A stretch of 64,000 nt of DNA from Clostridiales bacterium (GTDB taxonomy: Bacteria; Bacillota; Clostridia; Oscillospirales; CAG-272), in the NCBI GenBank assembly GCA_012800735.1, contig JAAZIU010000028.1, positions 3,245 to 67,244 on the forward strand, written 5' to 3'. Below are positions 13,398-57,730 of the stretch, one piece after another; positions within the stretch are counted from its first letter, which is position 1; each line of letters starts with the position of its first letter. Below the pieces are notes generated by a model. The model had not been told where the DNA came from. It saw nothing but the letters and a program-made list of their open reading frames with translations, and searched no databases. A program made the translations under genes and the position numbers.

Positions 13398-13624
13398 TTT
13401 ATACCTCCTGATTATATGGCCTGTGGTGATTTATAATTTTTTTTAAACCGCGCTTCACGCGTAAGCAGCGGGGGCAGCCGTTTTTTCCCCGAACACGGCT
13501 ACGGCGGTCAGTTTGTTACGGTTAATAAAGAAGAGCCGCAGCCCCGAACCCGGCGGCTGCAAACCGCCGGATTCAAGTCCGCGCAGTCAATGCGCCGTCA
13601 AACTTACCCCTGCAGCTACTGCAG

Positions 13625-15124
13625 CTACTGCAGCTGCTGCAGCTCTTTATACGCCTCGACAAGCTTCGTCAGAGCCGCCTGATATTTCGACTCGTTTTTG
13701 GCATAGAGCGAAGTATACGGAGTATTGTTCTTGACCATGGCGCGGAAGATGTGGATCATGTTCTCGCAGGAGACGGAGTTGACGAATCCGAAGTTGAAGA
13801 GAGCGCCGGAGCGGATGATGTCAAGCATCTCGATGCTGTTTTCGTCGGTGCTGTATTTGTATTTCATCGCCGTCTCGAAGAAGGCGGGGGTGACGGAGAA
13901 GTAGGATTCCGCCGCCATCGCCTCGGTCACGGCGCCGATCATGTCAAGGTCTCCGGCGTTTTTCGGGATGCAGAAGAGGGAATAGGCGTCCTGTGAGAGG
14001 GTGTGATAATCCTTCTGACTTTCGTCGTATTTCGGGGGCGGGATAATGCCGTATTCGAAAGAGGAGTCGCGGAGCCTGTCGATGGCGAAATTCAGCACGT
14101 TGATGTTGAGCAGCGCGCGGCCGTGAATGAACGGGGTGTGAGCATCCGGCTCCATCTCGATTATCGAGAAAACGCCTTCGTTTTCCTTGTAAATGCGCAG
14201 TACCGCGTCGGCTATCATGACGGCTCTCTCGTCGCCCATCCTTATCACTATCTCTCCCGATTCGTCGCGGGCGGTAAGCGGCTGGTCGAATGCCGGGAAG
14301 AAAAGGTCGCAGTTGTTGCCTATCGGCATAACGAGGCCGTATTCGTCGTCGACGGTCATCTCCCCGTCGCCGTCGATGTCGTTTGCGATAGACGCGGAAA
14401 GCTCGTAGAGCGTGTCATATGTCCATTTGCCCGCCCGGACGGTTTCGTAAAGGTCGGGGACTGCGTATTTTTCCGCCATACTCTTGTTGAAGAAGGTGGC
14501 GAACATCTGAGCTATCATCGTGTAGGAAAGGTCGCCGCCGGCAAAATAGAGCTGCCCGTAAAGCGTCAGCTCGTCGCGGAGGTTGGAGTTCCACCACGGC
14601 CGGTCGAAATCGAGGTAAGGTACTTCGAGCAGATTCGTGAATATTCCCTCGGTCGCCAGCGCCGTTACGTAGTAGGCGTAACCGGCGACTAATTGGAACT
14701 CGTTGTCTCCCGACTGCACCGAGCCGCGGAGCCTGTCGAAGAATTTGCCCTCGTTGCCCCAGATGCCGGGCGCGCGGACAACGCCGATGTCGACGCCGAG
14801 TTTTTCCTCAACGGCGCGCTGACGGTTGTAGACGGCATCGTTTACGATTTCGCCGTTCATCTCGTCGGTGACCATTTCATTCGGCCAGAGCAGGTCTTCT
14901 CGGCAATAGATTACGTATTTCTCGCCGTCGAAGCGGAGATTCGGCGGCAGTCCGTCGGAAGGGGCGGTTTCGGCGGCGGTTTCGGTTGTAATTTCGCCCG
15001 GGTCTGCGGTTTGTTCGGCGGTGTCTTTTTGCGGCGAACCGCAGCCGGCAAAGGAAATAGCTGAAAGCGTAACAAGCGTCAGCGCCGCAAGCAGCGCCGA
15101 TACGGTTTTTATCCGGAGTCTCAT
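13625..15124 (-). CDS. Lipoprotein, family-1 solute-binding-protein-like (paralog 4 of 10; tandem array A)
   Basis: Lipobox SFAGCGSP and the same landmarks. The 3' end carries a 9-nt CTGCAGCTA stutter (13610-13645). Confidence 0.85.
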   Translation of the reverse strand: MRLRIKTVSALLAALTLVTLSAISFAGCGSPQKDTAEQTADPGEITTETAAETAPSDGLPPNLRFDGEKYVIYCREDLLWPNEMVTDEMNGEIVNDAVYNRQRAVEEKLGVDIGVVRAPGIWGNEGKFFDRLRGSVQSGDNEFQLVAGYAYYVTALATEGIFTNLLEVPYLDFDRPWWNSNLRDELTLYGQLYFAGGDLSYTMIAQMFATFFNKSMAEKYAVPDLYETVRAGKWTYDTLYELSASIANDIDGDGEMTVDDEYGLVMPIGNNCDLFFPAFDQPLTARDESGEIVIRMGDERAVMIADAVLRIYKENEGVFSIIEMEPDAHTPFIHGRALLNINVLNFAIDRLRDSSFEYGIIPPPKYDESQKDYHTLSQDAYSLFCIPKNAGDLDMIGAVTEAMAAESYFSVTPAFFETAMKYKYSTDENSIEMLDIIRSGALFNFGFVNSVSCENMIHIFRAMVKNNTPYTSLYAKNESKYQAALTKLVEAYKELQQLQ

Positions 15125-15166
15125 TTTTCTGCCTCGTGTTTTTCTTTTATGTTGTAAGCATTAAAT

Positions 15167-16657
15167 TCACGGCTTCATCGCCTTATATCCCTCAACAAGC
15201 TTTGTCAGGGCCGCCTGATACCTCGACTCGTTTTTGGCGTAGAGGGAGGTAAACGGCTTCTTCTCCATTACCATGTAGCGGAAGATGTGGATCATGTTCT
15301 CGCAGGAGACGGAGTTGACAAAGCCGAAGTTGAAGAGGGCGCCCCCTCGGACGATGTCGAGCATCTCGATGCTGTTTTCGTCGGTGCTGTATTTGTATTT
15401 CATCGCCGTCTCGAAGAAGGCGGGGGTGACGGAGAAGTAGGATTCCGCCGCCATCGCCTCGGTCACGGCGCCGATCATCTCAAGGTCGCCGGCGTTTTTC
15501 GGGATGCAGAAGAGGGAATAGGCGTCCTGGGAGAGGGTGTGGTAGTTCTGCTGATTTTCGTCGTATTTCGGCACCGGGATGATTCCGTATTCAAAAGAGG
15601 AGTCGCGGAGTCTGTCGATGGCGAAATTCAGCACGTTGATGTCAAGCAGCGCGCGGCCGTGAATGAACGGGGTGTGGGCGTCCGGATCCCCTTCGTTTAC
15701 CGTGTAGACGCCTTCGTTTTTAGTGAAGAGCTGCAGCACCGCGTCGGCGATCATGACGGCTCGCTCGTCGTTCATTCTCAGCACTATCTCGCCGGATTCG
15801 TCGCGGGCGGTAAGCGGCTGGTTGAAGGCGGGCCAGAAAAGGTCGCACTGGTTTCCGTCGGGTATGACAAGGCCGTATTCGTCGTTGACGGTCATCTTCC
15901 CGTCGCCGTCTATGTCGTTTGATATCGACGCGACAAGCGTGTAAATCGTGTCATATGTCCATTTGCCTTCGCGGACGGTGTCGTAAAGGTCGGGAACGCT
16001 GAATTTCTCCGCCATGTCCTTGTTGAAGAAGGTGGCGAACATCTGGCCGATCATCGTGTAGGAGAGGTCGCCGCCGGCATAGTAGAGCTGATCGTAGAGC
16101 GTCAGCTCGTCGCGGAGGTTGGAGTTCCACCACGGCCGGTCGAAGTTGAGATAGGGGACGTGCAGAAGGTTTGTAAACACCCCTTCTATCGCCATCGACG
16201 TCACATAGTAGGCGTATCCGGCGACGAGTTGGAATTCGTTGTCTCCCGCCTGCACGTTGGCGCGTACTTTGTCATGGAACTGGATATGGCTGCCCCAGCT
16301 GCCGGGCGCGCGGACGACGCCGATATCGACGCCGAGCCGGTCTTCGACGACTTTCTGGCGATTGTATACCGCGTCGTTGACGATCTCGCCGTTCATGTCG
16401 TCGGTGACCATCTCGTTCATCCAGAGATGCTCCTCTCGGCTGTAAATTATATATTTTTCGCCGTCGAAACGGAGATCCGGCGGCAGGCCGTCGGAAGGGG
16501 CGGTTTCTTCGGTCGTGGTTTCGGCGGCCGCCGTGCCGGTATCCTGTCCGGGGGCGTCGCTTTTTTTCGAGCCGCAGCCGGCGAAGGAGAGCGCCAGAAG
16601 CGAGATTAGCAGCAGCGCCGCAAGCAGCGCCGATGTAGTTTTGATGCGTGTTGTCAT
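15167..16657 (-). CDS. Lipoprotein, family-1 solute-binding-protein-like (paralog 5 of 10; tandem array A)
   Basis: Lipobox SFAGCGSK and the same landmarks. Only 42 nt separate it from paralog 4. Confidence 0.85.
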   Translation of the reverse strand: MTTRIKTTSALLAALLLISLLALSFAGCGSKKSDAPGQDTGTAAAETTTEETAPSDGLPPDLRFDGEKYIIYSREEHLWMNEMVTDDMNGEIVNDAVYNRQKVVEDRLGVDIGVVRAPGSWGSHIQFHDKVRANVQAGDNEFQLVAGYAYYVTSMAIEGVFTNLLHVPYLNFDRPWWNSNLRDELTLYDQLYYAGGDLSYTMIGQMFATFFNKDMAEKFSVPDLYDTVREGKWTYDTIYTLVASISNDIDGDGKMTVNDEYGLVIPDGNQCDLFWPAFNQPLTARDESGEIVLRMNDERAVMIADAVLQLFTKNEGVYTVNEGDPDAHTPFIHGRALLDINVLNFAIDRLRDSSFEYGIIPVPKYDENQQNYHTLSQDAYSLFCIPKNAGDLEMIGAVTEAMAAESYFSVTPAFFETAMKYKYSTDENSIEMLDIVRGGALFNFGFVNSVSCENMIHIFRYMVMEKKPFTSLYAKNESRYQAALTKLVEGYKAMKP

Positions 16658-16757
16658 TGGGTCCTCCGTGTATTTTATTTTTTTATATCAATAATTGCGG
16701 GGGGCAATTTTTTTTATTGGGTGCGGGGAAGGGGGATTTGGCGCGGCAGGATGGGAT

Positions 16758-18763: not shown

Positions 18764-19003
18764 TTTTTATACCTCCTGCCGGCGTTCCGCGCCGACCGCT
18801 GTCCAAGGTTTTTATCGGTGTTTTTTATGTATTATATTTAAAAAAACTTTTGATTTTTTCTTGAGCGTTTACAATTTATTGTAGAATTACTTTTACGGTT
18901 ATGTTACTATATGAATAACCGCGCGGCGGTTATTCGCCGCCGGATAATCAAGTTTTTATCGGTTTTTATAAAACAAATTCAGAATATTATCGGGGAGGAA
19001 ACC

Positions 19004-20482
19004 ATGGATAAAAAGCTATTTATCTTTCGATTGACGGCGCTGCTCCTTGCGGCGGCGCTCAGCCTTGCGCTGATTTCCTGCGGAGGCGACAAGACTTCTC
19101 CCGGGGGCGAATCGGATTCGGGCGCGACGGAGGCTGTCGCCGAAACGACGGATCCTTACAGCGACGATTTGCCGGAGGGGCTTGATTTCGACGGGACGGA
19201 GATCCGTTTTCTGTCTGCCGTCGAAAAAACCTGCATCGCGATAGGCGAGGACGACGATTTGGGCGATATCGTCAACGCCGCTCTCTGGCAGCGCAATTTA
19301 GACCTTGAAAACCGGCTGAATGTAAAGATAGTGCTTGTCCGCACCACCGGCTTCGGCGATTTCAACAAAGCCGCCACCGAGTCCATCGCCGCAGGTTCCG
19401 ACGACTACGAAGTTCTCTGCGGACACACAAGGTTCAACATCAGCCTCGCCGCCGAGAAAATGCTGCTCAACCTGAACGACGTCGAATATCTCGACTTCAC
19501 AAAACCCTACTGGAGCGAGCTTTACACATCGAACGTAAACTACAAGGACAACTACTACTGGGCGGCCGGAGATATAACCACCAGCTTCATCCGATATATC
19601 TACGCGGTGTTTGTCAACTCCCGCACCTGGCAGAATTATCACTCCGGAATCGACCTTTACGCGGAAGTCGAGGCGGGCAGATGGACGCTTGACAAGCTCT
19701 CCGAATACGCCTCCGGCGCGTACGCCGACCTTAACGGCAACGGCGAAGCCGACGACGAGGACGCCTGGGGAATTGTCATGCAGAAAGGCCACGTGCTGAA
19801 CGGCATGGCTTTCGCCACCGGTACGAAGTATACGTCGAAGGACGAAAACGGCGACTATGTCATCGCCCTCAACAACGAGCACACAATCGACGTCTTCATG
19901 AAGCTGCACAGTCTTTTCTATGAGACCGATTACGCAAAGATGCTTCTGAACGAAGAATTCGACGAGAAGTCGAAAAATATGTTCGTCGAGGGGCGGCTGC
20001 TGTTCGAGCCTCATACCTTCGGATTTGCCGACAACACGGCCGTCCGCGGCATGGAGGACGATTTCTTCATCATCCCGATGCCGAAATACGACGAAAGCCA
20101 GGAAAAATACCGGGTCAATCAGTATGACGGAGTTCCGCTGTTCGGAATCCCGGTAACTGTGCCGGAGGAGCGGGCGGATATCGTCGGCGCGTCGCTTGAG
20201 GCGATGTGCTCTATGAGCTCGGATACGGTTATTCCGGTCTATTACGACCTCGCGCTGAAAAACAAATACAGCCGCGACGAGACGACCGCCCGCATGATCG
20301 ACCTTATCCACGAAAGCATAACGGCCGACTTCGCCTTCGCCTGGGGCGATACCATCGGCGGGATAATGAACATCTTCTACGACAACATACAGAATAAAGA
20401 TATTTCCAGCACGCTCAGCCGTCAGGAAAAAAGATGGACAAAAAATCTCGAAAAATTAATGGAAAAACTCTCTGACGAATAA
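19004..20482 (+). CDS. Lipoprotein, family-1 solute-binding-protein-like (paralog 6 of 10)
   Basis: ATG 19004 follows a GGGGAGGAA RBS. Lipobox ALISCGGD; TKPYWSEL, DLNGNGEADDEDAWG, FFIIPMPKYDESQ. Confidence 0.8.
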   Translation: MDKKLFIFRLTALLLAAALSLALISCGGDKTSPGGESDSGATEAVAETTDPYSDDLPEGLDFDGTEIRFLSAVEKTCIAIGEDDDLGDIVNAALWQRNLDLENRLNVKIVLVRTTGFGDFNKAATESIAAGSDDYEVLCGHTRFNISLAAEKMLLNLNDVEYLDFTKPYWSELYTSNVNYKDNYYWAAGDITTSFIRYIYAVFVNSRTWQNYHSGIDLYAEVEAGRWTLDKLSEYASGAYADLNGNGEADDEDAWGIVMQKGHVLNGMAFATGTKYTSKDENGDYVIALNNEHTIDVFMKLHSLFYETDYAKMLLNEEFDEKSKNMFVEGRLLFEPHTFGFADNTAVRGMEDDFFIIPMPKYDESQEKYRVNQYDGVPLFGIPVTVPEERADIVGASLEAMCSMSSDTVIPVYYDLALKNKYSRDETTARMIDLIHESITADFAFAWGDTIGGIMNIFYDNIQNKDISSTLSRQEKRWTKNLEKLMEKLSDE

Positions 20483-20591: not shown

Positions 20592-22229
20592 TCAACCGAT
20601 CGCCCTTATCAGCCCGCTTATCCCTTCGGATTTGAAAATTTCTTTGAAGTCGGATATTTCGTCTTCGATAATTTTATCAAGCGCCGCCATGCCCAGCAGC
20701 TCAACCGGCGCTTTGTCGTCTGTTAAGATACGGCCGCCCGGTATATATCTTTCAAGGCGGAGATATATTTGACGCATGTGGGAGGTGAGGGCGGGATCGG
20801 CGCAGGCGGTGATGTTTTTTGCAAAGATGTCGAGCAGCTGATCGGCGTCTCGCGTTGACGCGAAAATTTCGCGGTTGGTTGAACCGTATACGTCGCCGGA
20901 GAAGACCGAGCTGAAAACCGAGGCGGCGGTGTCGCAGAGGTAGCCGTTTATTCCGTCTTCTCCGCTTCGCATGTTCATGTTCATTACCATTACCCCGCCG
21001 GGGGAAAGCGAGTCGCGCAGCTTTGTGAAAAACTCGACGCTTGACATTGAAAAGGGGATGGTGATGTCCTGATAGGCGTCTACCATTATGACGTCGTATT
21101 TCTTGGTGTTTGCGTTGATAAAGGCGCGGCCGTCGCCGGTATAAACTTTGATTTGCGGGTCGGAGAGGTCGAGACCGAAATATTCGTCGGCGAGGGCGGT
21201 AATCTTTTCGTCTATCTCGACGCCGTCGACATGGCTGCCGGGGAAATACCTCCTCAGCTGGTTCATATAAGTGCCGGTGCCGTTGCCTAATATTAGAACC
21301 CTTGGGCTGTCGCCGGCCTCTGTCATCATCGGCGCGGCGAGGGCGTCGTCGTAATAAAAGCCGGTGAGAACGCCCTGTTTCATCCGGATAGATTGGACGC
21401 CGACGAGTACGTTGGTCGAGAGGACGACTCTTGTGTCGTCTTCCTTTACCTGAAGGTAATTATAGACCGATTCGCCTTCGTAGGCAAGTCCCTTCTCCCA
21501 GAACGCAAATGAGCCGCCGTGTCCGAGGACGCAGAATACCGCGAAAAGCAGGCAGGATATGATAAGTCCGACAAGCCCCCGGCGTTTTCCGCCGACGGCT
21601 TCGCCGATGAAGTAGACTGCCGCGACGGCGAGCAGCACTCCGCCGAAGATGAGGAAGGTGACAGCCGTTCCCGCCGCCGGAATTGTGACGAATGTCGGCA
21701 GGAAGGTGCCGATGATTGAGCCTATCGTGTTCGCCGCGCCTAATTTGCCGACGACGGAGCCGGAGTCTTCGGTGCTTTTAATGATATAGCGGCAGAGGGA
21801 GGGGGTTGTCGTTCCGAGCAGAAAAAGCGGGAAGACGAACAGCGCGATGCAGGAAGCCAGCGCCGCCCAGACAAGATAATTGCCGCTGACGGCGAAGATG
21901 ACAAGCCCGGAGATGCCTATTATAACATACTTTCCGACAGACGGAATAGCCGCTATCCATATCGCGGCCACAAGAAATCGCCGAAACAGCCGGTCGGGGT
22001 TCGGGTCGCGGTCGGCTGTCCGCCCACCCCAAACGTTGCCCAGCGCCATCGCGATCATAATAGTGCCGATGACAATCGTCCAGACAATCTGCGAGGAGGA
22101 AAAATACGGCGCGAGCAGCCGGTTCGCTCCGATCTCGACTGCCATAAGCGACATTCCGGCGAAAAATCCGGCTGCGTACAAAAAGAATCGGCTGTTGAGG
22201 GCAGACGCAGGTTTTGTTGTAGGTGTCAT
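20592..22229 (-). CDS. Fused membrane domain / spermidine-synthase-like aminopropyltransferase
   Basis: 545 aa with about 8 N-terminal TM helices, then VLILGNGTGTYMNQL.., VDGVEIDEKI, YDVIMVDAYQD (class I SAM/dcSAM fold of the spermidine synthase family). Confidence 0.7.
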   Translation of the reverse strand: MTPTTKPASALNSRFFLYAAGFFAGMSLMAVEIGANRLLAPYFSSSQIVWTIVIGTIMIAMALGNVWGGRTADRDPNPDRLFRRFLVAAIWIAAIPSVGKYVIIGISGLVIFAVSGNYLVWAALASCIALFVFPLFLLGTTTPSLCRYIIKSTEDSGSVVGKLGAANTIGSIIGTFLPTFVTIPAAGTAVTFLIFGGVLLAVAAVYFIGEAVGGKRRGLVGLIISCLLFAVFCVLGHGGSFAFWEKGLAYEGESVYNYLQVKEDDTRVVLSTNVLVGVQSIRMKQGVLTGFYYDDALAAPMMTEAGDSPRVLILGNGTGTYMNQLRRYFPGSHVDGVEIDEKITALADEYFGLDLSDPQIKVYTGDGRAFINANTKKYDVIMVDAYQDITIPFSMSSVEFFTKLRDSLSPGGVMVMNMNMRSGEDGINGYLCDTAASVFSSVFSGDVYGSTNREIFASTRDADQLLDIFAKNITACADPALTSHMRQIYLRLERYIPGGRILTDDKAPVELLGMAALDKIIEDEISDFKEIFKSEGISGLIRAIG

Positions 22230-22238
22230 TTTGGTTTT

Positions 22239-22544
22239 TTACCGTTTATATGAAACGAAACTTATTTTAATGGGCTTCTCTTGGAACGGCGACGTTTCAC
22301 CGAAGGTGAAACTCGCAGCGGACGCGAAGCGTCCGCAGACGCCCCAGACGTTGCCCAGCGCCATCGCTATCATTATCGTGCCGATGACAATCGTCCAGAC
22401 TATCTGCGAGGAGGAAAAATACGGCGCGAGCAGCCGGTTCGCTCCGATCTCGACCGCCATAAGCGACATTCCGGCGAAAAATCCGGCTGCGTACAAGAAG
22501 AATCGGCTGTTGAGGGCGGACGCAGGTTTTGTTGTAGGTGTCAT
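22239..22544 (-). pseudogene. Duplicated 5' fragment (leader plus first 68 codons) of the spermidine-synthase-like gene, reading through into a repeat element
   Basis: The first 68 aa are identical to CDS 20592-22229. The leader ttttaccgtttatatgaaacgaaactt is also duplicated (22241-22272 and 22556-22587). Confidence 0.8.
22276..22340 (-). repeat. Hairpin-train repeat unit at the duplication junction
   Basis: The plus strand reads ttggaacggcgacgtttcaccgaaggtgaaactcgc (core 22289-22316) followed by palindrome gcggacgc-gaa-gcgtccgc. Confidence 0.75.
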
Positions 22545-22622
22545 TTTGGTTTTTTACCGTTTATATGAAACGAAACTTGTTGTAAAGGGATTTTGCAGGA
22601 ATTGGATTTAACGGCGGAGCCG

Positions 22623-29691: not shown

Positions 29692-31041
29692 ATGGAATAT
29701 TTCATAGGTCTTGACATCGGCACTTCATCGATAAAAGGGGTGCTGCTCTCCCATGACGGAGATAAAGAAAGCCTCGCGTCGATCGCAGGGACAAAGACGG
29801 TCTATCACCCGGCGCGGCTCGGAGACGGCCCCGAATACGTCGGCTACTCCGCCGAAAAGCTCTATCAAAACGCCTGCGGCGTTATCCGCGCGCTGCTGAA
29901 TTCTCTGTCTTTGACTCAGCTCGTCGCGGTCAAAGGGCTGGCTATCGCCTCCGCTTCCGGCAACACGGTTTTAGTGTCGGATAAAGGGGAGCCGCTGCAC
30001 GACGCCTTTTCCTGGACGTCCCCTCCGGCGCAGGAGGAATACGACCGGTTTTTCGGGGAAAAATCCCCCTTCGGCGCCGTCGACCCGGAGGAGGTTTACC
30101 GCGCCTGCGGCTGGCCGATATCCGCGACATTCCCGCCCGGGCACCTTTCGTATATCGCCGCGCATCGGCCGGAGCTGATAAAGAACGCCTCGAAGGCGGC
30201 GATGACTACCGAATATATAATTTACCGCCTCTGCGGCGAGTGGGCGACCGATCCTTCCACCGCGACTCCGAGTTATCTCTGCGATCAGGAAAAGGCCGAG
30301 TGGCTGCCGTCGATGTATGAGCGGGTCGGGGTGCGTCAAGAGCAGCTGCCGCGCATAGGTTATACCGGCGAAACTGTCGGGAAGATAACTCCGGCGGCCG
30401 CCGCCGACAGCGGACTGCCGACTTCCTGCCGGGTGGTATTGGGGTCTTTTGACCATCCTTCTGCGGCAAGGGGAGCTGCGCCGAGGGTCCTCCGAGAGGG
30501 ACAGCTGCTGCTTTCCTGCGGCACTTCCTGGGTGGTGTTCGCGCCGATAAACGAAAAAGAGACGGTTATACGCGAGCGGCTGCTCTGCGATCCGTTCGAG
30601 ACTATGCGCGGCGGCGCCTGGGGCGGGATGTTCAGCCTTGAGTCGGTCGCGGCGAAAATCGATAAAATCGTAACGAAATACGTCAGTTCGGCTCCCAACC
30701 GCGCAAAGCATTTCGACGCCGCCGCCGAGCAGGCCGAACCCGGCTCGGGTGGGCTTGTCATCGACCCGACAGCGGACGCCGGCCGCGACTTCTCCGCCTA
30801 TGAGCCGAAAAATGTCGCCCGCGCCGTGATGGAAGGCACCGCAAGGCTCTTAAAAGACCGCCTCGACGCGCTTGCCGAATCATCGGGACTTCGTTTTTCC
30901 TCCGCCGCGATGGCGGGAGGTCCGTCGAACAGCAAAATCTGGCGGAAGATAATCGAAGATACTCTCGGTTATGAAGTGACGGTAAGCTACGCTGCCCACA
31001 CCGGCGCCCTTGGCGCGGCGAGAGTCGCGAGGGGAAAGTGA
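29692..31041 (+). CDS. FGGY-family carbohydrate kinase
   Basis: MEYFIGLDIGTSSIKGVLL (phosphate-1), GNTVL.., and C-terminal GGPSNSKIWRKIIEDTLG. Confidence 0.85.
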   Translation: MEYFIGLDIGTSSIKGVLLSHDGDKESLASIAGTKTVYHPARLGDGPEYVGYSAEKLYQNACGVIRALLNSLSLTQLVAVKGLAIASASGNTVLVSDKGEPLHDAFSWTSPPAQEEYDRFFGEKSPFGAVDPEEVYRACGWPISATFPPGHLSYIAAHRPELIKNASKAAMTTEYIIYRLCGEWATDPSTATPSYLCDQEKAEWLPSMYERVGVRQEQLPRIGYTGETVGKITPAAAADSGLPTSCRVVLGSFDHPSAARGAAPRVLREGQLLLSCGTSWVVFAPINEKETVIRERLLCDPFETMRGGAWGGMFSLESVAAKIDKIVTKYVSSAPNRAKHFDAAAEQAEPGSGGLVIDPTADAGRDFSAYEPKNVARAVMEGTARLLKDRLDALAESSGLRFSSAAMAGGPSNSKIWRKIIEDTLGYEVTVSYAAHTGALGAARVARGK

Positions 31042-31081
31042 CTCCGGCAGCCGTTTCACCGCTTCGAGGGCTACCCGCCCC

Positions 31082-31503
31082 GGGGCGGGATGTTCAGCCT
31101 TGAGTCGGTCGCGGCGAAAATAGATAAAATCGTAACGAAATACGTCAGTTCGGCTCCCAACCGCGCAAAGCATTTCGACGCCGCCGCCGAGCAGGCCGAA
31201 CCCGGCTCGGGCGGGCTTGTCATCGACCCGACAGCGGACGCCGACCGCGATTTTTCCGCCTATGAGCCGAAAAATGTCGCGCGCGCTTTGATGGAAGGCA
31301 CCGCAAGGCTCTTGAAAGACCGCCTCGACGCGCTTGCCGAATCGTCGGGACTGCGCTTCTCCTCCGCCGCGATGGCGGGAGGTCCGTCGAACAGCAAAAT
31401 CTGGCGGAAGATAATCGAAGATACTCTCGGTTATGAAGTGACGGTAAGCTACGCCGCCCACACCGGCGCCCTTGGCGCGGCGAGAGTCGCGAGGGGAAAG
31501 TAA
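31082..31503 (+). pseudogene. Tandem duplicate of the last 422 nt of the FGGY kinase gene
   Basis: ORF 31090-31503 matches the kinase C-terminus at 135 of 137 aa. It is separated from the parent stop by a 40-nt junction (31042-31081). Confidence 0.85.
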
Positions 31504-31670
31504 CCGCCTGCGAGCGCCAAGGAGCGTTGGCCGCGGCGAGAGTCGCGAGGGGAAAGTAATTGCAGCAACGCGCCGAGGAGCGGCGGCCGCGGCGAGAGTC
31601 GCACAGGGAAAGTAACCCCCTGCGAGCGCCGAGGAGCGGCGGCGCGGCGAGAGTCGCGAAGGGGAATTAA
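31504..31670 (+). repeat. Three further ~57-nt units repeating the last ~30 nt of the kinase gene, each including a stop codon
   Basis: ..gcggcgagagtcgcgaggggaaagtaa / ..gcggcgagagtcgcacagggaaagtaa / ..gcggcgagagtcgcgaaggggaattaa. Confidence 0.8.
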
Positions 31671-31724
31671 CTCCGGCGGATTTGTTCTGAATTTATATTT
31701 TAATCTCGGAGGTGTTTTCGACAT

Positions 31725-34896: not shown

Positions 34897-34929
34897 ATGT
34901 TTTGAGCATCCCCGGATTCTCAATAAAAT

Positions 34930-34977
34930 AAAAAACTCCCTCTCACGGCAGAAAACCCAACCTGCCGCGGGAGGGAA
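34930..34977 (-). terminator. Duplicate copy of the ddl terminator hairpin (no minus-strand gene feeds it)
   Basis: aaaaaactccctctcacggcagaaaacccaacctgccgcgggaggga, which matches 36484-36529 apart from 2 differences. Confidence 0.6.
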
Positions 34978-36438: not shown

Positions 36439-36483
36439 GAAACAAGGTGAATTTATCCGGCGCTCCGCGCCATCGCGAACGAT

Positions 36484-36529
36484 AAAAAACTCCCTCTCAC
36501 GACAGAAAACCAACCTGCCGCGGGAGGGA
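36484..36529 (-). terminator. Terminator of ddl
   Basis: The minus strand reads tccctcccgcggcaggttggttttctgtcgtgagagggag followed by ttttttatc. Confidence 0.65.
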
Positions 36530-36540
36530 AAATTCATTTA

Positions 36541-36707
36541 ATTGATTTTGTCTTCGACAAAATCCTCCTTAGAAAAAACACAAGCTATGACTAAACTGTC
36601 CAACGGCGATATATTGTCGAAGACAATATTCGCGACTAACGCGAAGCGTTAGTCAGAGATGATTTTGCCTTCGGCAAAACTCGCGAATAGCGCCTGCGGC
36701 GCTATTC
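36541..36707 (-). repeat. Composite hairpin-train repeat directly after ddl; the palindrome contains the ddl stop codon
   Basis: The minus strand reads gaaTAGcgcc-gca-ggcgctattc (36707-36685), then gcgagttttgccgaaggcaaaatcatctc, then two further palindromes, then ..tgtgttttttctaagga. Confidence 0.8.
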
Positions 36708-42869: not shown

Positions 42870-44042
42870 ATGTCAGACAAAAAGAAAAAAGAAAAGAACC
42901 CGCGTCTTGCGACCGTCGGCGGTCAGGCCGTCATCGAAGGCGTAATGATGCGGGGCGGCGACAACTTAGCCGTCGCCAGCCGTCTGCCGGACGGTTCGAT
43001 TAAAATCACAAAATCCCGCTGGCAGAGCATCAGGAAAAAGTATAAAATTCTGAATATCCCGCTCATTCGCGGCGCTGTCAACTTCGTCGAGATGATGATA
43101 CTCAGCTATAAAACGCTCAGCGTTTCCGCCGAAGCGCTGGGAATTGACGAAATTGAGCCGGAAAGCAAATTTGAAAAGTGGCTTGACCGCAAACTCGGCA
43201 GTAAAATTGTCGGCGTTATAATGGGAATTGCGTCGGTTTTAGGCGTCGGCATCGGGCTTTTGCTCTTTATGTGGCTGCCGGTATTTCTGACCCGCATCCT
43301 CGACACGGCTGTCGGCGGCGGACTCGGATTTTTCAAAAACCTGATAGAGGGCGTTGTGAAGATACTCATTTTCGTCCTGTATCTCTGGGGCGTCTCGCAT
43401 ATGAGCGACATCAAGCGGGTTTTCATGTACCACGGCGCCGAACATAAATCGATATTCTGCTACGAAAAAGGGCTGCCGCTGACGGTCGAAAACGTGGCGG
43501 CGCAGAGCCGCTTTCACCCGCGGTGCGGCACCAGCTTTCTCTTTGTCATGCTGCTGCTTTCGATACTTATCTATTCGCTGCCGATAGTTCCGTGGGACAA
43601 TACCTTGCTGCGGATGCTTGCGAAGATAGCGCTGATGCCGGTTATAGTCGGTATCGGCTTTGAGTTCATCATGTTTGCCGGAAAGCACGACAATCTGCTT
43701 ATCCGCGTCCTTTCGGCGCCCGGTCTCTGGATGCAGCGGATAACCACCCGCGAGCCTTCGGCTGATATGATCGAGTGCGGCATTGCCGCGCTGAAATCGG
43801 CTTTGCCCGACAATTTTCCCGGCTACGACCCGGTGAAGAATCCGGATGTTCTGCCGACTGACGGAATCGGCGTGACAGATGAGGACAGGGAACGGTTTGC
43901 GGCGAAAGCCGCCGCTGCTTTGGCTGCCGAAACCGAAACAAGCGCCGAAGATACCGAAGAGCCCGCAGCGGATGGCGATTCGGAAGACATAGCCCCGGAA
44001 CCTGCCGACGCCGGCGAAGACGATGAGCCGGTCATTCAGTAA
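42870..44042 (+). CDS. DUF1385 membrane protein (conserved prmC neighbour)
   Basis: VGGQAVIEGVMMR, YHGAEHK and TM helices. It has an acidic C-terminal tail and overlaps prmC. Confidence 0.8.
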   Translation: MSDKKKKEKNPRLATVGGQAVIEGVMMRGGDNLAVASRLPDGSIKITKSRWQSIRKKYKILNIPLIRGAVNFVEMMILSYKTLSVSAEALGIDEIEPESKFEKWLDRKLGSKIVGVIMGIASVLGVGIGLLLFMWLPVFLTRILDTAVGGGLGFFKNLIEGVVKILIFVLYLWGVSHMSDIKRVFMYHGAEHKSIFCYEKGLPLTVENVAAQSRFHPRCGTSFLFVMLLLSILIYSLPIVPWDNTLLRMLAKIALMPVIVGIGFEFIMFAGKHDNLLIRVLSAPGLWMQRITTREPSADMIECGIAALKSALPDNFPGYDPVKNPDVLPTDGIGVTDEDRERFAAKAAAALAAETETSAEDTEEPAADGDSEDIAPEPADAGEDDEPVIQ

Positions 44043-44865
44043 ACTATCAAAGCAGGACAAGGAACGACTGGTCGAAGTCTTTGGACATGGAGCCGAATTT
44101 GAATCGGCCGTCGCCCGCGCCGAAGCGGGAGAGCCTGTCGCGCTTATAACCGGCGAGCAGGCGTTTTTCCGCGAGAGCTATCTTGTCACGCCGGACACCC
44201 TCATCCCCCGCCCGGATACCGAGCGGGTCGTTGAGGCGGTTCTTTCCGCCCTTCGGGACATTGCCGCCCTGCGGGGCGTCGCCGCCCTTCGGAACGTTGC
44301 CGCCCCTTGGGGCGGGGCGCATTTTCTCGACCTCTGTACCGGAAGCGGCTGTATCGCGATATCCGCCGCAGCGAACACCCCGGCGCGGCTTTCCTCGGTC
44401 ACGGCGGTTGACATTTCCCCCGGCGCGCTTGCCGTGGCTCGGAAAAACGCCGACCGCAACCGCAATAAAGCCGTCAGACCGGAAAATTTCGACGTTTTTT
44501 GTTTTATTGCGGCGGATGTGACAGACAAAGAAGCCGCCGATGAAATCACCCGCGGCAAACATTTTGACGTAATCGCCGCGAACCCGCCTTATATAAAGAC
44601 TGCCGACCTCCAATCGCTTGACGCTTCGGTGAGGGACTTTGAGCCGCTCTGCGCCCTCGACGGCGGAGAGGACGGTTTTCGCTTCTACCGCGCGATAATT
44701 GAGAATTTTTCCCCGGCGCTCGCCGACGGCGGCGTGATGATATTTGAGATCGGCTACGACCAGCGCGAGGGGATTATTGATTTGGCGGAAAAATACGGCT
44801 TTTCCTGCAAGGTGACCCGCGACTGGGGAGGGAATGACCGGGTTGCGGAGATGAGAAAGAAGTAA
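44023..44865 (+). CDS. prmC: Release-factor glutamine N5-methyltransferase
   Basis: LIPRPDTE, LDLCTGSGCIA, IAANPPYI. Contains an in-frame 18-nt triple repeat (44251-44304). Confidence 0.88.
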   Translation: MSRSFSKLSKQDKERLVEVFGHGAEFESAVARAEAGEPVALITGEQAFFRESYLVTPDTLIPRPDTERVVEAVLSALRDIAALRGVAALRNVAAPWGGAHFLDLCTGSGCIAISAAANTPARLSSVTAVDISPGALAVARKNADRNRNKAVRPENFDVFCFIAADVTDKEAADEITRGKHFDVIAANPPYIKTADLQSLDASVRDFEPLCALDGGEDGFRFYRAIIENFSPALADGGVMIFEIGYDQREGIIDLAEKYGFSCKVTRDWGGNDRVAEMRKK

Positions 44866-48774: not shown

Positions 48775-49350
48775 ATGTCAAACAAGTTCATCGTCGAGAC
48801 TTCCGCTCACCACCTTCATTTGAGCGCCGAACACCTTGCAATTCTTTTCGGCGAAGACGCCGAGCTTACCGTCAGAAAGATGCTGAGCCAGCCGGGGCAG
48901 TTTGCCTGCGAAGAGCAGGTTGCAGTTGAAGGCCCCCGCGGCCGTCTTGAGCGCGTTCGCGTTTTAGGTCCCGTCCGCGCCGAGAGCCAGGTCGAGCTTT
49001 CCGCCACCCACGCCCGCACCCTCGGCATCAAAGCTCCCGTCCGCGAATCCGGCGTAATCGACGGCACTCCCGGCTGCAAGCTGATCGGCCCTTGCGGCGA
49101 AGTTGAGCTCGACAAGGGCGTCATCATAGCCAAGCGCCACATCCATATGACCCCCGCCGACGCCGAAGCTTTCGGAGTCGCCGACAAAGACATCGTCTCC
49201 GTTAAAATAGACACCCCCGACCGTTCCCTGATTTTCGGCGACACCGTCGTCCGCGTTTCCCCCAAGTTCGCCCTTGCGATGCACATTGACACCGACGAAT
49301 CAAACGCCGCCAACGCCGGCGGAGAAGTTTACGGAGAGATAGTCAGGTAA
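48775..49350 (+). CDS. pduL: Phosphate propanoyltransferase
   Basis: ETSAHHLHLS..., RVLGPVR, AKRHIHMTP, AMHIDTDE (duplicated PduL His motifs). Confidence 0.85.
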   Translation: MSNKFIVETSAHHLHLSAEHLAILFGEDAELTVRKMLSQPGQFACEEQVAVEGPRGRLERVRVLGPVRAESQVELSATHARTLGIKAPVRESGVIDGTPGCKLIGPCGEVELDKGVIIAKRHIHMTPADAEAFGVADKDIVSVKIDTPDRSLIFGDTVVRVSPKFALAMHIDTDESNAANAGGEVYGEIVR

Positions 49351-49408
49351 TCTAAGGTTTTTCAGCCGCCGCGCTGAGTTACGGCTTAAAACCGGATATT
49401 ACATATAA

Positions 49409-49475
49409 TAACTAAACTTCGGAACAGCGATGTTTTGCCCCCGGCAAAACTCGCGAATAGCGCGAAGCGCTATTC
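49409..49475 (-). repeat. Hairpin-train repeat unit
   Basis: taactaaacttcggaacagcgatgttttgcccccggcaaaactcgc followed by gaatagcgcgaagcgctattc. Confidence 0.75.
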
Positions 49476-49540
49476 ATAGTAAGTTAAGTTTTTTGGGTGT
49501 GAGAAAAACCTTTTTTTAAAAAAGGTCTTTCTCTTTAATC

Positions 49541-49657
49541 TCCGGCGACACCGTCGTCCGCGTCTCCCCCAAGTTCGCCCTCGCGATGCACATCGACACC
49601 GACGAATCGAACGCCGCCAACGCCGGCGGAGAAGTTTACGGAGAGATAGTCAGGTAA
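49541..49657 (+). pseudogene. Tandem duplicate of the last ~115 nt of pduL
   Basis: Encodes GDTVVRVSPKFALAMHIDTDESNAANAGGEVYGEIVR*, identical in aa to the parent. All 4 nt differences are synonymous. The 3' UTR is also copied, to ~49698. Confidence 0.8.
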
Positions 49658-49700
49658 TCTAAGGTGTTTCAGCCGCCGCGCCGAGGTACGGCTTAAACCA

Positions 49701-49833
49701 ATAAAAACTAAACTTTGGTGCGGCGATGTTTTGCCTCCGGCAAAACTCGCGAATGGCGCGAAGCAGCCATTCAGGGGCGAGTGATGTTTCACCGAAGGTG
49801 AAACTCACAGCCGGCGCGGAGCGCCGGCAGACG
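49701..49833 (-). repeat. Composite hairpin-train repeat (two cores)
   Basis: ..aaactttggtgcggcgatgttttgcctccggcaaaactcgc, then gaatggcgcgaagcagccattc, then gtgatgtttcaccgaaggtgaaactcac (49781-49808), then gccggcgcggagcgccggc. Confidence 0.75.
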
Positions 49834-53550: not shown

Positions 53551-53997
53551 ATGAAACTTAAAGTTAAAGTCAAGCGGGTGCGTGACAGCGCGAAGCTGCC
53601 GCACTCGGGTTCTGTGATTGCCGCCGGATATGACCTTTCCGCCGCGATCAATGAAGATATTATTATTCCGCCCGGCTGCTGGGCGGCTGTCCCCACCGGG
53701 ATTGCGATTGAGCCGGAGAGCGACGCCGTCGTCGGCTTTGTCCTGCCGCGGTCGGGGCTCGGCGCGAAACACGGCGTTGTGCTGCGGAACTCTGTCGGCG
53801 TAATTGACGCCGATTACCGCGGCGAGATAATTGTCACCCTCGTGAATACCGGGGAGGAGAGTTTCGTCGTTCATCCCGGCGACAGGATAGCGCAGCTCGT
53901 CTTTCTGCCGGTCTTTGCGGCGGAGTTTATCGAGGCAGAGGAGCTTTCCGAGACGGGGAGGGGCGCCTCCGGATTCGGGTCTACCGGGGTGAAGTAA
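53551..53997 (+). CDS. dut: dUTP diphosphatase
   Basis: AAGYDL, PRSGLG.KHG, VIDADYRGEI, GDRIAQL, RG..GFGSTG. Confidence 0.92.
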   Translation: MKLKVKVKRVRDSAKLPHSGSVIAAGYDLSAAINEDIIIPPGCWAAVPTGIAIEPESDAVVGFVLPRSGLGAKHGVVLRNSVGVIDADYRGEIIVTLVNTGEESFVVHPGDRIAQLVFLPVFAAEFIEAEELSETGRGASGFGSTGVK

Positions 53998-54117
53998 TAA
54001 AGGGAAGTGGTTCTCTGAAATACGGTGGAATCCGGCTCCGGATTCGGTTCTACCGGGGTGAAGTAATTGACATAAGCTGGAATCCGGCGGGGGTTTGGGT
54101 CGACGGGGATAAAATAA
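53967..54117 (+). repeat. Three-fold stutter of the dut 3' end, including the stop codon
   Basis: ctccggattcgggtctaccggggtgaagtaa (53967-53997), ctccggattcggttctaccggggtgaagtaa (54036-54066), and a degenerate third copy at 54078-54117. Confidence 0.8.
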
Positions 54118-54223
54118 AGCGGTGAAGGGAGTTGAATCTCAGGGATAACGTTCAATTTTCACACAGGCGCCGCGGATGAAGGCGGAGAGGAATTCATCGC
54201 GGAAACGAAAGGGAAATTTTGCG

Positions 54224-57011: not shown

Positions 57012-57050
57012 AAAAAAACCGGGGAAACTTCGTTTATGAAGCTCCCCGGT
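57012..57050 (-). terminator. Terminator of the small membrane protein gene
   Basis: The minus strand reads accgggga..tccccggt followed by ttttttc. Confidence 0.7.
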
Positions 57051-57115
57051 GAAAACAAAGAAAGGAGTTGGTTGTTTGCGCGGTTGTTTACCCGTCGGTT
57101 TCGGGTAAGCTCTTG

Positions 57116-57451
57116 TTATTCCGGCTTGTCGGCGGGAGCCGGCTCGTCGAAATCTGCTTCGTCGGCGACTTCAACTTCAATGTCGCGGTCGCAGCAATCT
57201 TCGTCAAGGAAAATCGCTTCGTCATCGTCGTCAAATTCAAAACCGCAGCACTCGTCGAGGTAGTCCTCGCAGTTGGCTTCGCAAAGGTTGCGCATATATT
57301 CGTTGAATTTCTTATATGCCATATAAGCGAGGGCGGCGATGCCGGCGACGGTGATGATGAAGAGGATTATCTTAAGAGCCTTGTCAAGCTTTGATTCTTT
57401 CGGCTCAGGCACGGGCACAAAGCGATCTCTGATATCCTGTATTACTTTCAT
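57116..57451 (-). CDS. Small single-pass membrane protein with a Cys- and Asp/Glu-rich tail
   Basis: ATG 57451 lies 7 nt after AGGAGG. TM helix ALKIILFIITVAGIAALAYMAY, then CEANCEDYLDECCGFEFDDDDEAIFLDEDCCDRD. Confidence 0.6.
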   Translation of the reverse strand: MKVIQDIRDRFVPVPEPKESKLDKALKIILFIITVAGIAALAYMAYKKFNEYMRNLCEANCEDYLDECCGFEFDDDDEAIFLDEDCCDRDIEVEVADEADFDEPAPADKPE

Positions 57452-57589
57452 TGTTATGCCTCCTAAATAGATTATTCGTTGCTTCATAATAAATTATACC
57501 ACATAAGCGGCGTTTTGTACACCGCGCGAGTGAAAAAAATTGTTAATTTTTTGATAAAGCTCGATATATCAACCAAAAAGACCGGCATT

Positions 57590-57730
57590 ATGCTCCTCAG
57601 GGTATTTTGTCATATGCTTTTCGGCTGATTTTTTGACGCTTGCGCAGGTCGAGACATGGCTGTTCTTGCCGCCGGGCTATATCCGCAGGTCTTGTCGCAG
57701 AAATCCGTTTCGGTTTTAAGCGAAGAATTT
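57590..57730 (-). pseudogene. Decayed 3'-terminal fragment of an eleventh lipoprotein paralog
   Basis: 57630-57715 aligns by eye to 60818-60905 (ggct..ttgacgcttgcg.aggtcga...cttgccg....atgtcgcaggtcttg.cg.agaatccg). There is no intact frame. It lies immediately downstream of the paralog 8 stop. Confidence 0.55.

Follow-up and report, generated by a model that had tools for sequence, protein, structure and literature searches.

Tandem duplication of housekeeping gene ends in an uncultured Clostridia bacterium from biogas reactors, with copies resembling alleles of different strains

Introduction

Homology-facilitated illegitimate recombination (HFIR) goes back to three primary papers (de Vries and Wackernagel, 2002; Prudhomme et al., 2002; Meier and Wackernagel, 2003). 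In laboratory systems it is rare (PMC3240628, PMC5361080), and the usual outcome is a gain of heterologous DNA with loss of recipient DNA. In an E. coli conjugation study, single-crossover integration of the Campbell type led to 109-950 bp duplications of the end of lacZ (PMC3240628). C-terminal displacement and orphan 3' arrays are known from rhs, CDI, and T6SS effector loci (PMC5361080; Jackson et al., 2009, cited therein): an incoming 3' end captures the gene and the old 3' end is pushed downstream, leaving strings of orphan fragments with different toxin tips and immunity genes. These are believed to be under selection, and a mechanism akin to HFIR has been suggested for them (PMC5361080). 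Transformation-induced merodiploidy in Streptococcus pneumoniae yields tandem duplications of 100-900 kb, from recombination with incoming DNA and alternative pairing, with IS repeats on both sides and a hybrid repeat at the junction (PMC3784515). Repair-associated or template-switch tandem duplications with snap-back junctions are described for yeast and human cells (PMC10592705; bioRxiv 10.1101/2024.02.20.581123).

An uncultured Clostridia bacterium from biogas reactors, whose nearest species genome is the MAG "Clostridiales bacterium AS10tlH2TH_327," carries housekeeping gene ends two to three times in tandem, at several genes, within one 64-kb stretch of DNA (the window: all of the DNA analysed here). 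Its larger arrays consist of a copy within the intact gene (c1), a short spacer (B), and a truncated copy (c2). As in HFIR, a single anchor would be homologous and a single joint illegitimate, the latter at short microhomology (2-3 nt, at locus i below); the donor would be DNA of a related lineage, and the foreign segment would be kept beside the anchor. Unlike in the laboratory cases, the segment is itself allelic to the gene beside it, and a tandem duplication results. Also different, and new here, are near-loopless palindromes of 8-16 nt at three junctions; to our knowledge, palindromic junctions are not a described feature of HFIR. Campbell-type integration matches in topology (A-insert-A), in duplicating gene ends, and in size range, but here the copies are separated by just 40-61 nt that contain no vector or marker; a circle of no more than 307-462 bp would be required, and the 52-56 nt units found here cannot be accounted for. 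Capture of a gene by an incoming end, as at effector loci, is a further likeness, except that these are housekeeping genes whose copies encode the same amino acids, and the copies look like a neutral by-product. Recombination with incoming DNA and alternative pairing would be shared with the pneumococcal duplications, although these arrays span 0.3-0.46 kb and have one end inside a coding region. The yeast and human duplications are likewise short and arise where a one-ended break copies an allelic template before switching, and the junction palindromes found here would be compatible with their snap-back repair. Those systems are eukaryotic, however, and we know of no bacterial counterpart with another strain's allele as template.

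Results and Discussion

Duplicated gene ends and their junctions

The original prediction described six loci as one phenomenon. All six features are present where it placed them, or within a few nucleotides, but a common phenomenon can be upheld only for loci i-iii and the third unit of locus iv, which have the silent-site pattern described below; loci v and vi fall outside it. The large duplications of gene termini are three, at the 5' end of a spermidine-synthase-like gene and the 3' ends of an FGGY kinase gene and pduL; all have the topology A-B-A, and none A-B-A-B.

Locus i (repeat 22027-22280 versus 22342-22595, offset 315)
22027-22280, minus strand: c1, leader and first 68 codons of the intact fused MFS/spermidine-synthase-like gene (20592-22229)
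22281-22341, minus strand: spacer B, partial hairpin-train element with two hairpins (nhmmer E = 3e-6)
22342-22595, minus strand: c2, leader and 68 codons, truncated
Locus ii (repeat 30617-31041 versus 31079-31503, offset 462, then 56-nt units to ~31678)
30617-31041, plus strand: c1, last 140 codons of the intact FGGY kinase gene (29692-31041)
31042-31081, plus strand: spacer B, 40 nt
31082-31503, plus strand: c2, truncated kinase 3' end, 137-aa ORF
31504-31678, plus strand: three 56-nt units
Locus iii (first alignment 49231-49390 versus 49538-49697, offset 307; with an 11-nt indel allowed, 49222-49476 versus 49529-49773, hairpin-train element included)
49222-49476, plus strand: c1, last ~43 codons of pduL (48775-49350), 3' UTR type 1, hairpin-train element
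49477-49528, plus strand: spacer B, 52 nt
49529-49773, plus strand: c2, truncated pduL 3' end, UTR type 2, hairpin-train element

In a scan of all gene ends in the window, the outliers were exactly these loci (3/51 genes). The identical scan of 485 genes in unrelated control loci found no duplication of comparable strength, an enrichment with a Fisher estimate of ~8e-4.

At locus i, spacer B and the truncated c2 end meet at a microhomology (CG/GCG) that falls precisely on the element terminus. The distal leader of c1 is "Type 2," as in strain L114, and its upstream flank (element plus AGCCCATTAAAATAAG) also matches L114; c2 is in the native "Type 1" upstream context, matching single-copy strain L113 at 102/108 positions. 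The two flanks are thus two allelic architectures, each found separately in a single-copy strain (L113, L114).

The c1 stop codon of locus ii is TGA, followed by CTCCGGC, and the c1 end resembles an allele without the 56-nt units. Spacer B consists, in order, of CTCCGGCA, which resembles the native downstream flank, a 24-nt filler with the motif GTTTCACC, and CCCGCCCC; together with the beginning of c2, its last 8 nt make up a perfect 8+8 palindrome (31074-31089). Each 56-nt unit repeats the last ~47 nt of the kinase gene, including the stop codon, plus ~9 nt. Two units occur in single-copy strains and the sister species, so the units are older. The unit array terminates in CTCCGGC, and the insert as a whole (filler, c2, and units) is flanked on both sides by this direct repeat.

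Spacer B of locus iii contains a near-loopless palindrome (GAGAAAAACCTTTTTT T AAAAAAGGTCTTTCTC) directly beside the truncated pduL fragment. The UTR types of c1 and c2 differ, strain L011 having the c2 type. This duplication predates the split of 95%-identical strains and is mosaic: the 5' half is specific to array position, while in any one strain the 3' half of c1 is the same as that of c2. Most differences between the copies are derived in the functional c1.

Inclusion of UTRs, variable 5' truncation, and a palindrome at the truncated end could also be expected of cDNA from mRNA 3' (or 5') ends, given a snap-back second strand and inserted beside the parent gene. This is extremely improbable: the window and its flanks showed no reverse transcriptase, one of the duplicated ends (locus i) is a 5' end, and divergence between strains and lineage-specific flanks would go unexplained. 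It also seems improbable that the arrays are scars of a site-specific integrative element, or of hairpin-train element transposition, that targeted gene ends and brought a replacement gene end, on the model of att duplications at tRNA or gene 3' ends or of aberrant or one-ended transposition. A gene end carried by an element would experience coding selection for as long as it stayed integrated; at locus i the junction falls on an element terminus, there are elements in or next to the locus iii arrays, and the dut 3' flank (locus iv) varies by an AbiH gene in L008 and L010. The Pfam lists for the window and its flanks, however, include no integrase, transposase, or reverse transcriptase; spacers are merely 40-61 nt long, the locus ii spacer has no match to the element model, duplicates of 30-420 nt are unlike target-site duplications, and the AbiH indel lies outside any dut-repeat bracket.

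Reproducibility of the junctions

The original prediction had warned of strain-variant contig ends, or bubble arms, concatenated at repeat-induced assembly breaks. The data are all metagenomic, divergence between copies equals that between strains, and several contigs end in or next to the repeats (L002, L003, L004, L005, L011, L013-15, L016). Such an artefact is nonetheless very unlikely. The junctions are 100% identical in at least five independent projects with different pipelines: in contigs from ENA ERZ27280797/99, ENA ERZ925067/75/76, NCBI GCA_046128195.1, JGI 3300058959, and JGI 3300002168. Spacers of 40-61 nt are shorter than the assembly k (127/141), so every k-mer across B includes parts of both copies and must occur in reads; adjacent SNPs distinguishing c1 from c2 are <100 nt apart, so their phasing is k-mer-supported as well. 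A 98.5%-identical strain has both alleles as in the window, diverged strains have the same array or a three-copy version, and contig breaks are explained by real copy-number variants, as in L003. With linkage resting on reproducibility and k-mer logic, the duplicated termini are evidently real, heritable structural variants.

Silent-site divergence

Codon differences were counted between the coding parts of c1 and c2 at loci i-iii, and compared by binomial test with an expected synonymous proportion of 0.25. Pooled, 25/28 are synonymous (p = 9e-13). Earlier manual counts of 8/8 at locus i and 13/15 at locus ii were reproduced: locus i has 8 synonymous and no non-synonymous changes, and the 15 differing positions at locus ii comprise 12 synonymous, one stop-to-stop, and 2 non-synonymous changes. 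The 4/4 reported for locus iii holds for the four synonymous changes, but there is one additional non-synonymous change, in the boundary codon (TTC>TCC). A dN/dS comparison, also proposed earlier, gave dS of 0.13-0.20 and dN/dS of 0-0.05 between copies. These match orthologs of ~95%-identical strains, with dS of 0.11-0.15 and dN/dS of 0.06-0.15.

When kinase differences are polarised with two outgroups, c2-derived changes number four synonymous and one stop-to-stop, with none non-synonymous; the distances among c1, c2, and the L110 allele are broadly similar (15, 17, and 23 differences). The silent c2-derived changes in the kinase and the strain-like dS and dN/dS support the original prediction that both copies at loci i-iii diverged inside intact genes, and therefore that one of them is an allele fragment from another lineage. 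The locus i flanks, matching the architectures of L113 and L114, agree with this, and each copy carries a lineage-specific flank.

The same bias would arise if the truncated copies were functional and diverged silently in place under purifying selection, whether as the 137-aa FGGY_C ORF, as a 101-aa N-terminal membrane fragment, or at the RNA level. Locus ii c2 is an intact ORF from an internal ATG, and locus i c2 retains its leader and start codon. This is highly doubtful, however: the fragments lack whole domains, single-copy strains are common, and a deletion variant was found in a sample of the same project. The L008 pduL c2 is frameshifted, and the F>S boundary change is in every downstream, non-functional pduL copy seen. 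Divergence in place to a dS of 0.13-0.2 would also require escape from homogenisation of the kind that locus iii shows.

Strain variation and possible origin

At the same loci, a comparison also proposed earlier, other strains carry one, two, or three copies: L003 lacks c2, L110-112 and L113 are single-copy, and L008 has three, including a frameshifted one. Homologous recombination between strains is frequent and directly visible. L004 and the window have 66 differences, all at ~27.0-29.0 kb and 63 of them within 27.5-29.0 kb, with none across the next 2.5 kb, a sharp tract. Among the strains compared, no single-copy strain was found with the predicted donor architecture for locus ii (kinase-TGA-CTCCGGCA-GCCGTTTCACC...) or locus iii (pduL-UTR1-element-B).

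The arrays most likely arose when the allele of a diverged strain recombined one-sidedly, by homology at one end and illegitimately at the other, and only events that spared an intact gene survived (probability about 0.52). Each large array would be the product of a single event, in which DNA of a co-resident strain, ~4-5% diverged, recombined homologously with the chromosome at one side only and was joined illegitimately at the other. An illegitimate joint just outside the intact gene copy would leave a complete gene and a truncated second allele in tandem, each allele retaining its own lineage's flank, the flanks differing in hairpin-train elements or short repeat units. Arrays would be seen at gene termini because selection spares only events leaving one intact gene. 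Unequal crossing-over could later alter copy number (1-3 copies among strains), accompanied by partial homogenisation through gene conversion and slow decay. We infer that duplication and allele capture happened together in one event, and likewise the molecular route, which could be HFIR, a Campbell-type single crossover with a small circularised fragment, or break repair that over-copied the diverged allele and ended in end-joining. The first two had been proposed earlier; single-crossover or illegitimate recombination is supported, but the two are indistinguishable here. Three events within 64 kb are many for a process as rare in the laboratory as HFIR, which counts against one-sided recombination.

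Tandem duplication in situ might instead have come first, through template switching, slippage promoted by hairpins or palindromes, or repair of a break from the sister chromosome, with one copy later replaced by a diverged allele through homologous recombination and the untouched copy frozen. Overall this is rather unlikely, although possible for loci i and iii. Sharp recombination tracts do exist in the population, and loopless junction palindromes are typical of template-switch or snap-back repair (PMC10592705; bioRxiv 10.1101/2024.02.20.581123). Locus iii, shared by strains 5% apart, has the mosaic 5'/3' pattern, and most of its differences are derived in functional c1; with a duplication older than the strain split and 3' halves identical within strains, it can be read equally well as an old duplication whose functional copy later underwent allelic turnover. 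At locus ii, however, differences span from 41 nt inside c2 to the c1 stop codon, and a replacement tract would have to end within 7 nt of homology (in c1, past the last difference) or 41 nt (in c2, before the first); the start of B (CTCCGGCA) copies native downstream flank, as random filler would not. The distal leaders at locus i match two natural architectures and would need an extra replacement event, and simple duplication predicts A-A or A-B-A-B rather than A-B-A.

Loci iv, v, and vi

53967-54117, plus strand: locus iv, dut 3' end and two further stop-containing units (three units in total)
54036-54065, plus strand: locus iv unit 2
54088-54117, plus strand: locus iv unit 3, encoding GFGSTGIK* (GFGSTGVK* in the dut gene)
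~57572-57715, minus strand: locus v, decayed 3' fragment of a ~495-aa tandem paralog family
13610-13644, minus strand: locus vi, 9-nt repeat CTGCAGCTA x3.9 (CTGCAGTAG on the gene strand)

In dut unit 3, 6/7 differences are at third codon positions, which fits the silent-site pattern; locus iv also contains a palindrome, GAATCCGGCTCCGGATTC, at 54028-54045. The dut 3' flank is a variable spot, L008 and L010 having an AbiH gene at this position without dut repeats on both sides of the indel. Locus v, at ~40% amino-acid identity and with an in-frame stop, shows neutral decay and is an ordinary pseudogene, the remnant of a decayed paralog. The locus vi repeat includes the stop codon of the paralog at 13625-15124 and is simple slippage of a 9-nt microsatellite.

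Duplicated gene ends

All six sites of repeated gene ends that the original prediction placed in the window are present, and by repeat finders and fixed-offset comparison three of them are large tandem duplications. A scan of every gene end in the window against its outside flank returned exactly these loci, with scores of 105–385 over a background of ~11–15. The same scan of 485 genes from unrelated control loci gave nothing above 33, and no further terminal duplications were found in the next 10 kb of the same genome, beyond the window's right end. Promoter and terminator scans added nothing.

Repeated gene ends in the window
22027-22280 vs. 22342-22595, gene on minus strand: locus i, leader plus 68 codons of a fused MFS/spermidine-synthase-like gene (20592-22229, minus strand)
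30617-31041 vs. 31079-31503: locus ii, final 140 codons of the FGGY kinase; behind the second copy comes a train of 56-nt units, each with a stop, to ~31678
49231-49390 vs. 49538-49697: locus iii, pduL; allowing an 11-nt indel, 49222-49476 vs. 49529-49773
53967-54117: locus iv, dut 3′ end, three times
~57572-57715: locus v, decayed paralog 3′ fragment
13610-13644: locus vi, 9-nt stutter, 3.9 copies, 96% matches

The extended repeat at locus iii takes in the 3′ UTR and a copy of the dispersed intergenic “hairpin-train” element. Loci i, ii, and iii share the layout A-B-A, in which a copy belonging to the intact gene (c1) and a truncated second copy (c2) are separated by a spacer (B). The arrangement (A-B)2-A occurs in L008, a 95% strain with three pduL units, one of them frameshifted; A-B-A-B was never seen.

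Junctions in independent assemblies

The duplications could be assembly chimeras, strain-variant contig ends concatenated at repeats, but this is very unlikely. Exact-protein look-ups returned contigs of several unrelated projects (two ENA MEGAHIT series, k141 and k127; one NCBI metagenome assembly; and JGI assemblies) that match the window and its junctions at 99.9–100% identity, and the junctions recur at 100% identity in independent assemblies. The spacers (40–61 nt) are shorter than k, and adjacent SNPs between c1 and c2 are less than 100 nt apart; junctions and allele phase must therefore exist in the reads. Arrays of this kind break short-read assemblies and may pass for chimeras: the contigs that end in repeat regions are an effect of copy-number polymorphism on de Bruijn graphs.

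Strain variants

Comparison of the same loci in related genomes, suggested along with the original prediction, turned up strains with one, two, and three copies. Locus i is single-copy in strains L113 and L114, and locus ii in L110-112. In L003, a variant found in one run, the kinase c1 runs straight into the second 56-nt unit. Strain L004 (98.5% identical to the window) carries the same c1 and c2 alleles. It differs from the window at 66 positions between ~27.0 and 29.0 kb, a stretch that takes in araA and its surroundings (63 within 27.5–29.0 kb, ~4%), and at none in the 2.5 kb after ~29.0 kb, which defines a sharp recombination tract in which homologous exchange among ~95% strains is directly visible.

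A metagenome scan with PduL found only relatives of at most 71% identity, of no use for strain comparison. A genome scan with the kinase found one fragmented sister-species MAG (AS10tlH2TH_327), an outgroup for locus ii and of no help for loci i and iii. Two contigs of this MAG, L016 and L017, share a 127-nt overlap; the end of L016 is at most 8 nt from the left boundary of the duplication. At ~535-700 of L017, the kinase stop codon reads TGC, not TGA; the ORF would extend ~55 codons through the 56-nt units.

Divergence between copies

The original prediction gave synonymous proportions of 8 of 8, 13 of 15, and 4 of 4 for loci i–iii. The first two are confirmed (8:0 and 13:2, synonymous to non-synonymous codon differences between c1 and c2); locus iii has one non-synonymous change (4:1). 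Pooled, 25 of 28 differences are synonymous where a fraction of 0.25 is expected (p = 9e-13). By the Nei-Gojobori method, c1 and c2 have dS 0.20 and dN/dS 0 at locus i, and dS 0.127 and dN/dS 0.05 at locus ii. Orthologs in different strains give the same picture: dS 0.114 and dN/dS 0.145 for the kinase (window vs. L110), 0.117 and 0.059 for spermidine synthase (window vs. L113), and 0.151 and 0 for pduL (window vs. L008). Copy-to-copy dS (0.13–0.20) is thus at the inter-strain level.

Locus ii was polarized with sister-species contig L017 and single-copy strain L110. The changes unambiguously derived in c2 are four synonymous ones and TGA>TAA, with none non-synonymous; with L017 as sole outgroup, both non-synonymous differences are derived in the functional c1. 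Because the c2-derived kinase changes are all silent, c2 cannot have been dead while the copies diverged. The c1, c2, and L110 kinase alleles are roughly equidistant (15, 17, and 23 differences). Relative to L110 and L017, no clear switch of allele phase is seen across the 422 nt.

The observation is solid and statistically strong for loci i–iii and unit 3 of locus iv. At loci i–iii, the claim that the copies diverged inside intact genes, one being an allele from another lineage, is borne out by the silent bias, the inter-strain level of dS, and the silent c2 changes. Together with the two flank architectures described below, the dS level and these changes suggest that the inserted segment comes from a lineage other than the recipient's.

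A diversity-generating retroelement with a TR/VR pair was rejected as the source of the paired copies: all substitution types are present with no adenine-specific pattern, 25 of 28 differences are silent, and no reverse transcriptase is found in the Pfam annotations, nor any integrase or transposase.

Junction anatomy

The 115-nt upstream flank of c2 at locus i agrees with single-copy strain L113 at 102 of 108 positions (a terminator, then a “Type 1” leader). The upstream flank of c1 is a hairpin-train element followed by AGCCCATTAAAATAAG, the arrangement of L114, where it reads AGCCCGTTAAAATTAG. The element terminus is joined to the truncated end of c2 with only CG/GCG in common; on the opposite side homology is continuous.

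At locus ii, c1 ends TGA-CTCCGGCA, and looks like an allele whose stop codon abuts the native downstream flank, without 56-nt units. The insert consists of a 24-nt filler, CCCGCCCC, c2, and the units, the whole bracketed by a direct CTCCGGC repeat. Its right side is seamless at CTCCGGC; its left side is filler and palindrome. A search of the window and all fetched loci for a source of spacer B matched only the junction itself. In shuffle tests of spacers against repeat units, the sole significant similarity is an inverted match for dut spacer 1 (p = 0.007).

At locus iii, c1 and c2 carry different UTR types, and the c2 type is present in another strain (L011).

Proposed origin of loci i–iii

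The simplest account of loci i–iii would be a one-sided recombination in which the DNA came from a diverged co-resident strain. Homologous exchange would resolve one side; the other would be closed by an illegitimate joint that chanced to fall just outside an intact gene copy, leaving a complete gene and a truncated second allele, each keeping its own lineage's flank. Events leaving no intact gene would be removed by selection, which would be why the duplications are located at termini.

The same product could come from homology-facilitated illegitimate recombination (HFIR), from Campbell-type integration of a small circle, or from break repair in which an allelic template is copied too far and the end is then joined; these routes cannot be separated here. 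One seamless homologous junction and one illegitimate junction, as in HFIR, are seen at loci i and ii. Direct repeats of a homology segment around a non-homologous insert, as in Campbell integration, are seen at all three. The reading originally proposed, an allele fragment of another lineage joined in a Campbell-type or HFIR-like manner, is supported for these loci. In E. coli, the Campbell route has produced lacZ-end duplications of 109–950 bp (PMC3240628); the over-copying route is known from work on eukaryotes (PMC10592705; bioRxiv 10.1101/2024.02.20.581123).

In the main rival account, the duplication arises in situ and one of the two copies is later replaced by another allele. Locus iii suits it well, the duplication there being older than the strain split, but it would need two separate architectural replacements at locus i. 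At locus ii it is strained: the crossover it requires has no space to fall in, and spacer B starts with a copy of the native flank.

One-step capture from another strain predicts a single-copy kinase donor of the form ...GGGGAAAGTGACTCCGGCAGCCGTTTCACC, and a single-copy donor pduL-UTR1(AAAACCGGATATTACATATAATAAC)-element-AGTAAGTTAAG..., neither with a c2 after it. Three kinds of later change would account for the variants: unequal crossing-over, giving one to three copies and the L003 deletion; gene conversion, which left pduL c1 and c2 with the same 3′ half in any one strain; and slow decay, seen as the L008 c2 frameshift and F>S at the boundary codon.

An att scar left by an integrative element was rejected: the 40–61 nt spacers hold no ORF, there is no integrase in the window, and an AbiH indel beside dut is not bracketed by the dut repeats.

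In the way the process works, loci i–iii are like HFIR or single-crossover integration. They also resemble “C-terminal displacement” at rhs/T6SS loci, where old 3′ ends are pushed downstream (PMC5361080). In the window, by contrast, housekeeping genes are affected and their displaced ends code for the same protein, and nothing therefore points to a diversifying function. The loci are best regarded as a new natural variant of a known event type, unusual in local density and in the association of their junctions with palindromes and hairpin elements.

The traces left by one-sided illegitimate recombination have been studied thoroughly in laboratory work and, to our knowledge, have seldom been recorded in wild genomes. 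Here there are three in 64 kb of housekeeping genes in an uncultured organism, with junction sequences and population variants preserved. They offer a read-out of how often and in what manner co-resident biogas strains exchange DNA. They also indicate that short tandem “pseudo-fragments” beside genes can be foreign alleles, not decayed self-copies, which bears on annotation and on dN/dS-based inference.

Palindromes and the hairpin-train element

Perfect palindromes with arms of 8 nt or more and a loop no longer than 2 nt number nine in the 64 kb. Three lie at truncated ends of duplicated fragments, with an estimated chance of ~1e-5; this position-specific count is more informative than shuffle tests. 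The locus iii palindrome of L008 is perfect, 14+14 with a 2-nt centre.

Palindromes at truncated ends
31074-31089
49508-49526
54028-54045

Snap-back synthesis, hairpin opening, and template switching are candidate origins. As snap-back copies of the fragment's own end, the palindromes fail at locus iii, where the arm is not gene-derived, and at dut unit 3; this reading fits ii-462, the 56-nt units, and dut unit 2. For the short arrays, a stem around the stop codon is an equally good reading of the inverted repeat. Given these two failures and the possible stop-codon stem, the palindromes are a signature, not a proven mechanism.

The hairpin-train element is ~120 nt long, with three hairpins and conserved linkers such as AGAAAAAACA...ACTTTGG...CGGAGA. 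The 64 kb hold at least 16 significant copies, all intergenic. Their stems vary with compensatory changes (GTTTCGAC/GTCGAAAC, GTTTTGGC/GCCAAAAC, GTTTCACC/GGTGAAAC), and the element is polymorphic among strains: L114 has one where L113 has none. An Rfam search matched RNase P only, and no family corresponding to the element. The RNase P hit (bacterial class A RNA gene, 6679-7039, minus strand, 248 bits) has hairpin-train elements on both sides.

Hairpin-train copies, among others
4591-4864
6444-6644
7083-7205
8799-9073
10655-10786
22281-22316
34962-35072
36540-36708
49401-49477
49697-49808

As originally predicted, the element occurs at junctions i and iii: it supplies spacer B of locus i and sits within the units of locus iii. 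The element model does not match spacer B of locus ii. Duplication between two copies of a dispersed repeat (REP-REP) does not explain the arrays: at every locus the inner end point is within a coding sequence, loci i and iii have the element on just one side, and locus ii has no significant match to it.

The loci do associate near-loopless palindromes and a dispersed hairpin element with illegitimate joints. It is rather unlikely that a characteristic, perhaps dedicated, break-processing activity of this lineage captures pieces of other strains' alleles at gene termini, with such palindromes as its signature. Candidates would be snap-back polymerase repair, or a hairpin-forming or -opening nuclease or transposase linked to the hairpin-train elements. 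If so, such “terminal allele capture” would be a bacterial route not described before, and the same activity could also generate the variable stems of the elements.

Smaller loci

The six loci were originally taken as one phenomenon; this stands for i–iii and for unit 3 of locus iv, and fails for v and vi. Dut unit 3 encodes GFGSTGIK* where the gene encodes GFGSTGVK*; third codon positions account for six of its seven differences (p ~0.007), and three strains share it unchanged. It represents the old displaced 3′ end of a more distant allele. Locus v, with an in-frame stop and ~40% identity, is a decayed remnant of the ordinary kind where a tandem paralog array ends, and locus vi is slippage of a 9-mer containing a stop codon. 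Changes in the number of 56- and 52-nt units are plausibly due to slippage as well. Every relative has the 56-nt kinase units; the sister species has two of them and the window ~3.5. The short-period, near-identical head-to-tail units without a spacer that mark simple slippage occur only at locus vi, and slippage does not account for how the large A-B-A arrays arose.

Additional variation

The paralogs of which locus v is a further, decayed copy are ~495 aa long with no Pfam match. They form two arrays of three in tandem (11910-16657 and 57738-62241; 74–89% DNA identity within an array), with single relatives at 4882-6432, 7237-8715, and 18911-20482.

An abortive-infection gene, AbiH, lies between dut and a UDPGT glycosyltransferase gene in L008 (15566-16834) and in L010, another compared strain (9833-11119); the window strain lacks it, at ~54123-54133. 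The interval between the M42 peptidase genes and ddl is also variable (L110 9964-13805 vs. window ~34900-36700): L110 has a restriction-modification-like island (Vsr, two DNA methylases, and an HTH protein), and the window has HTH_3 and DUF6036 genes with flanking hairpin-train elements. L008 has DNA methylases upstream of a 363-aa gene. Within a methyltransferase gene (44023-44865) is an 18/36-nt tandem repeat (44246-44314); the protein has 280 aa in the window strain against 275 aa in L008, L010, and L011, a difference that points to variation in copy number that keeps the frame.
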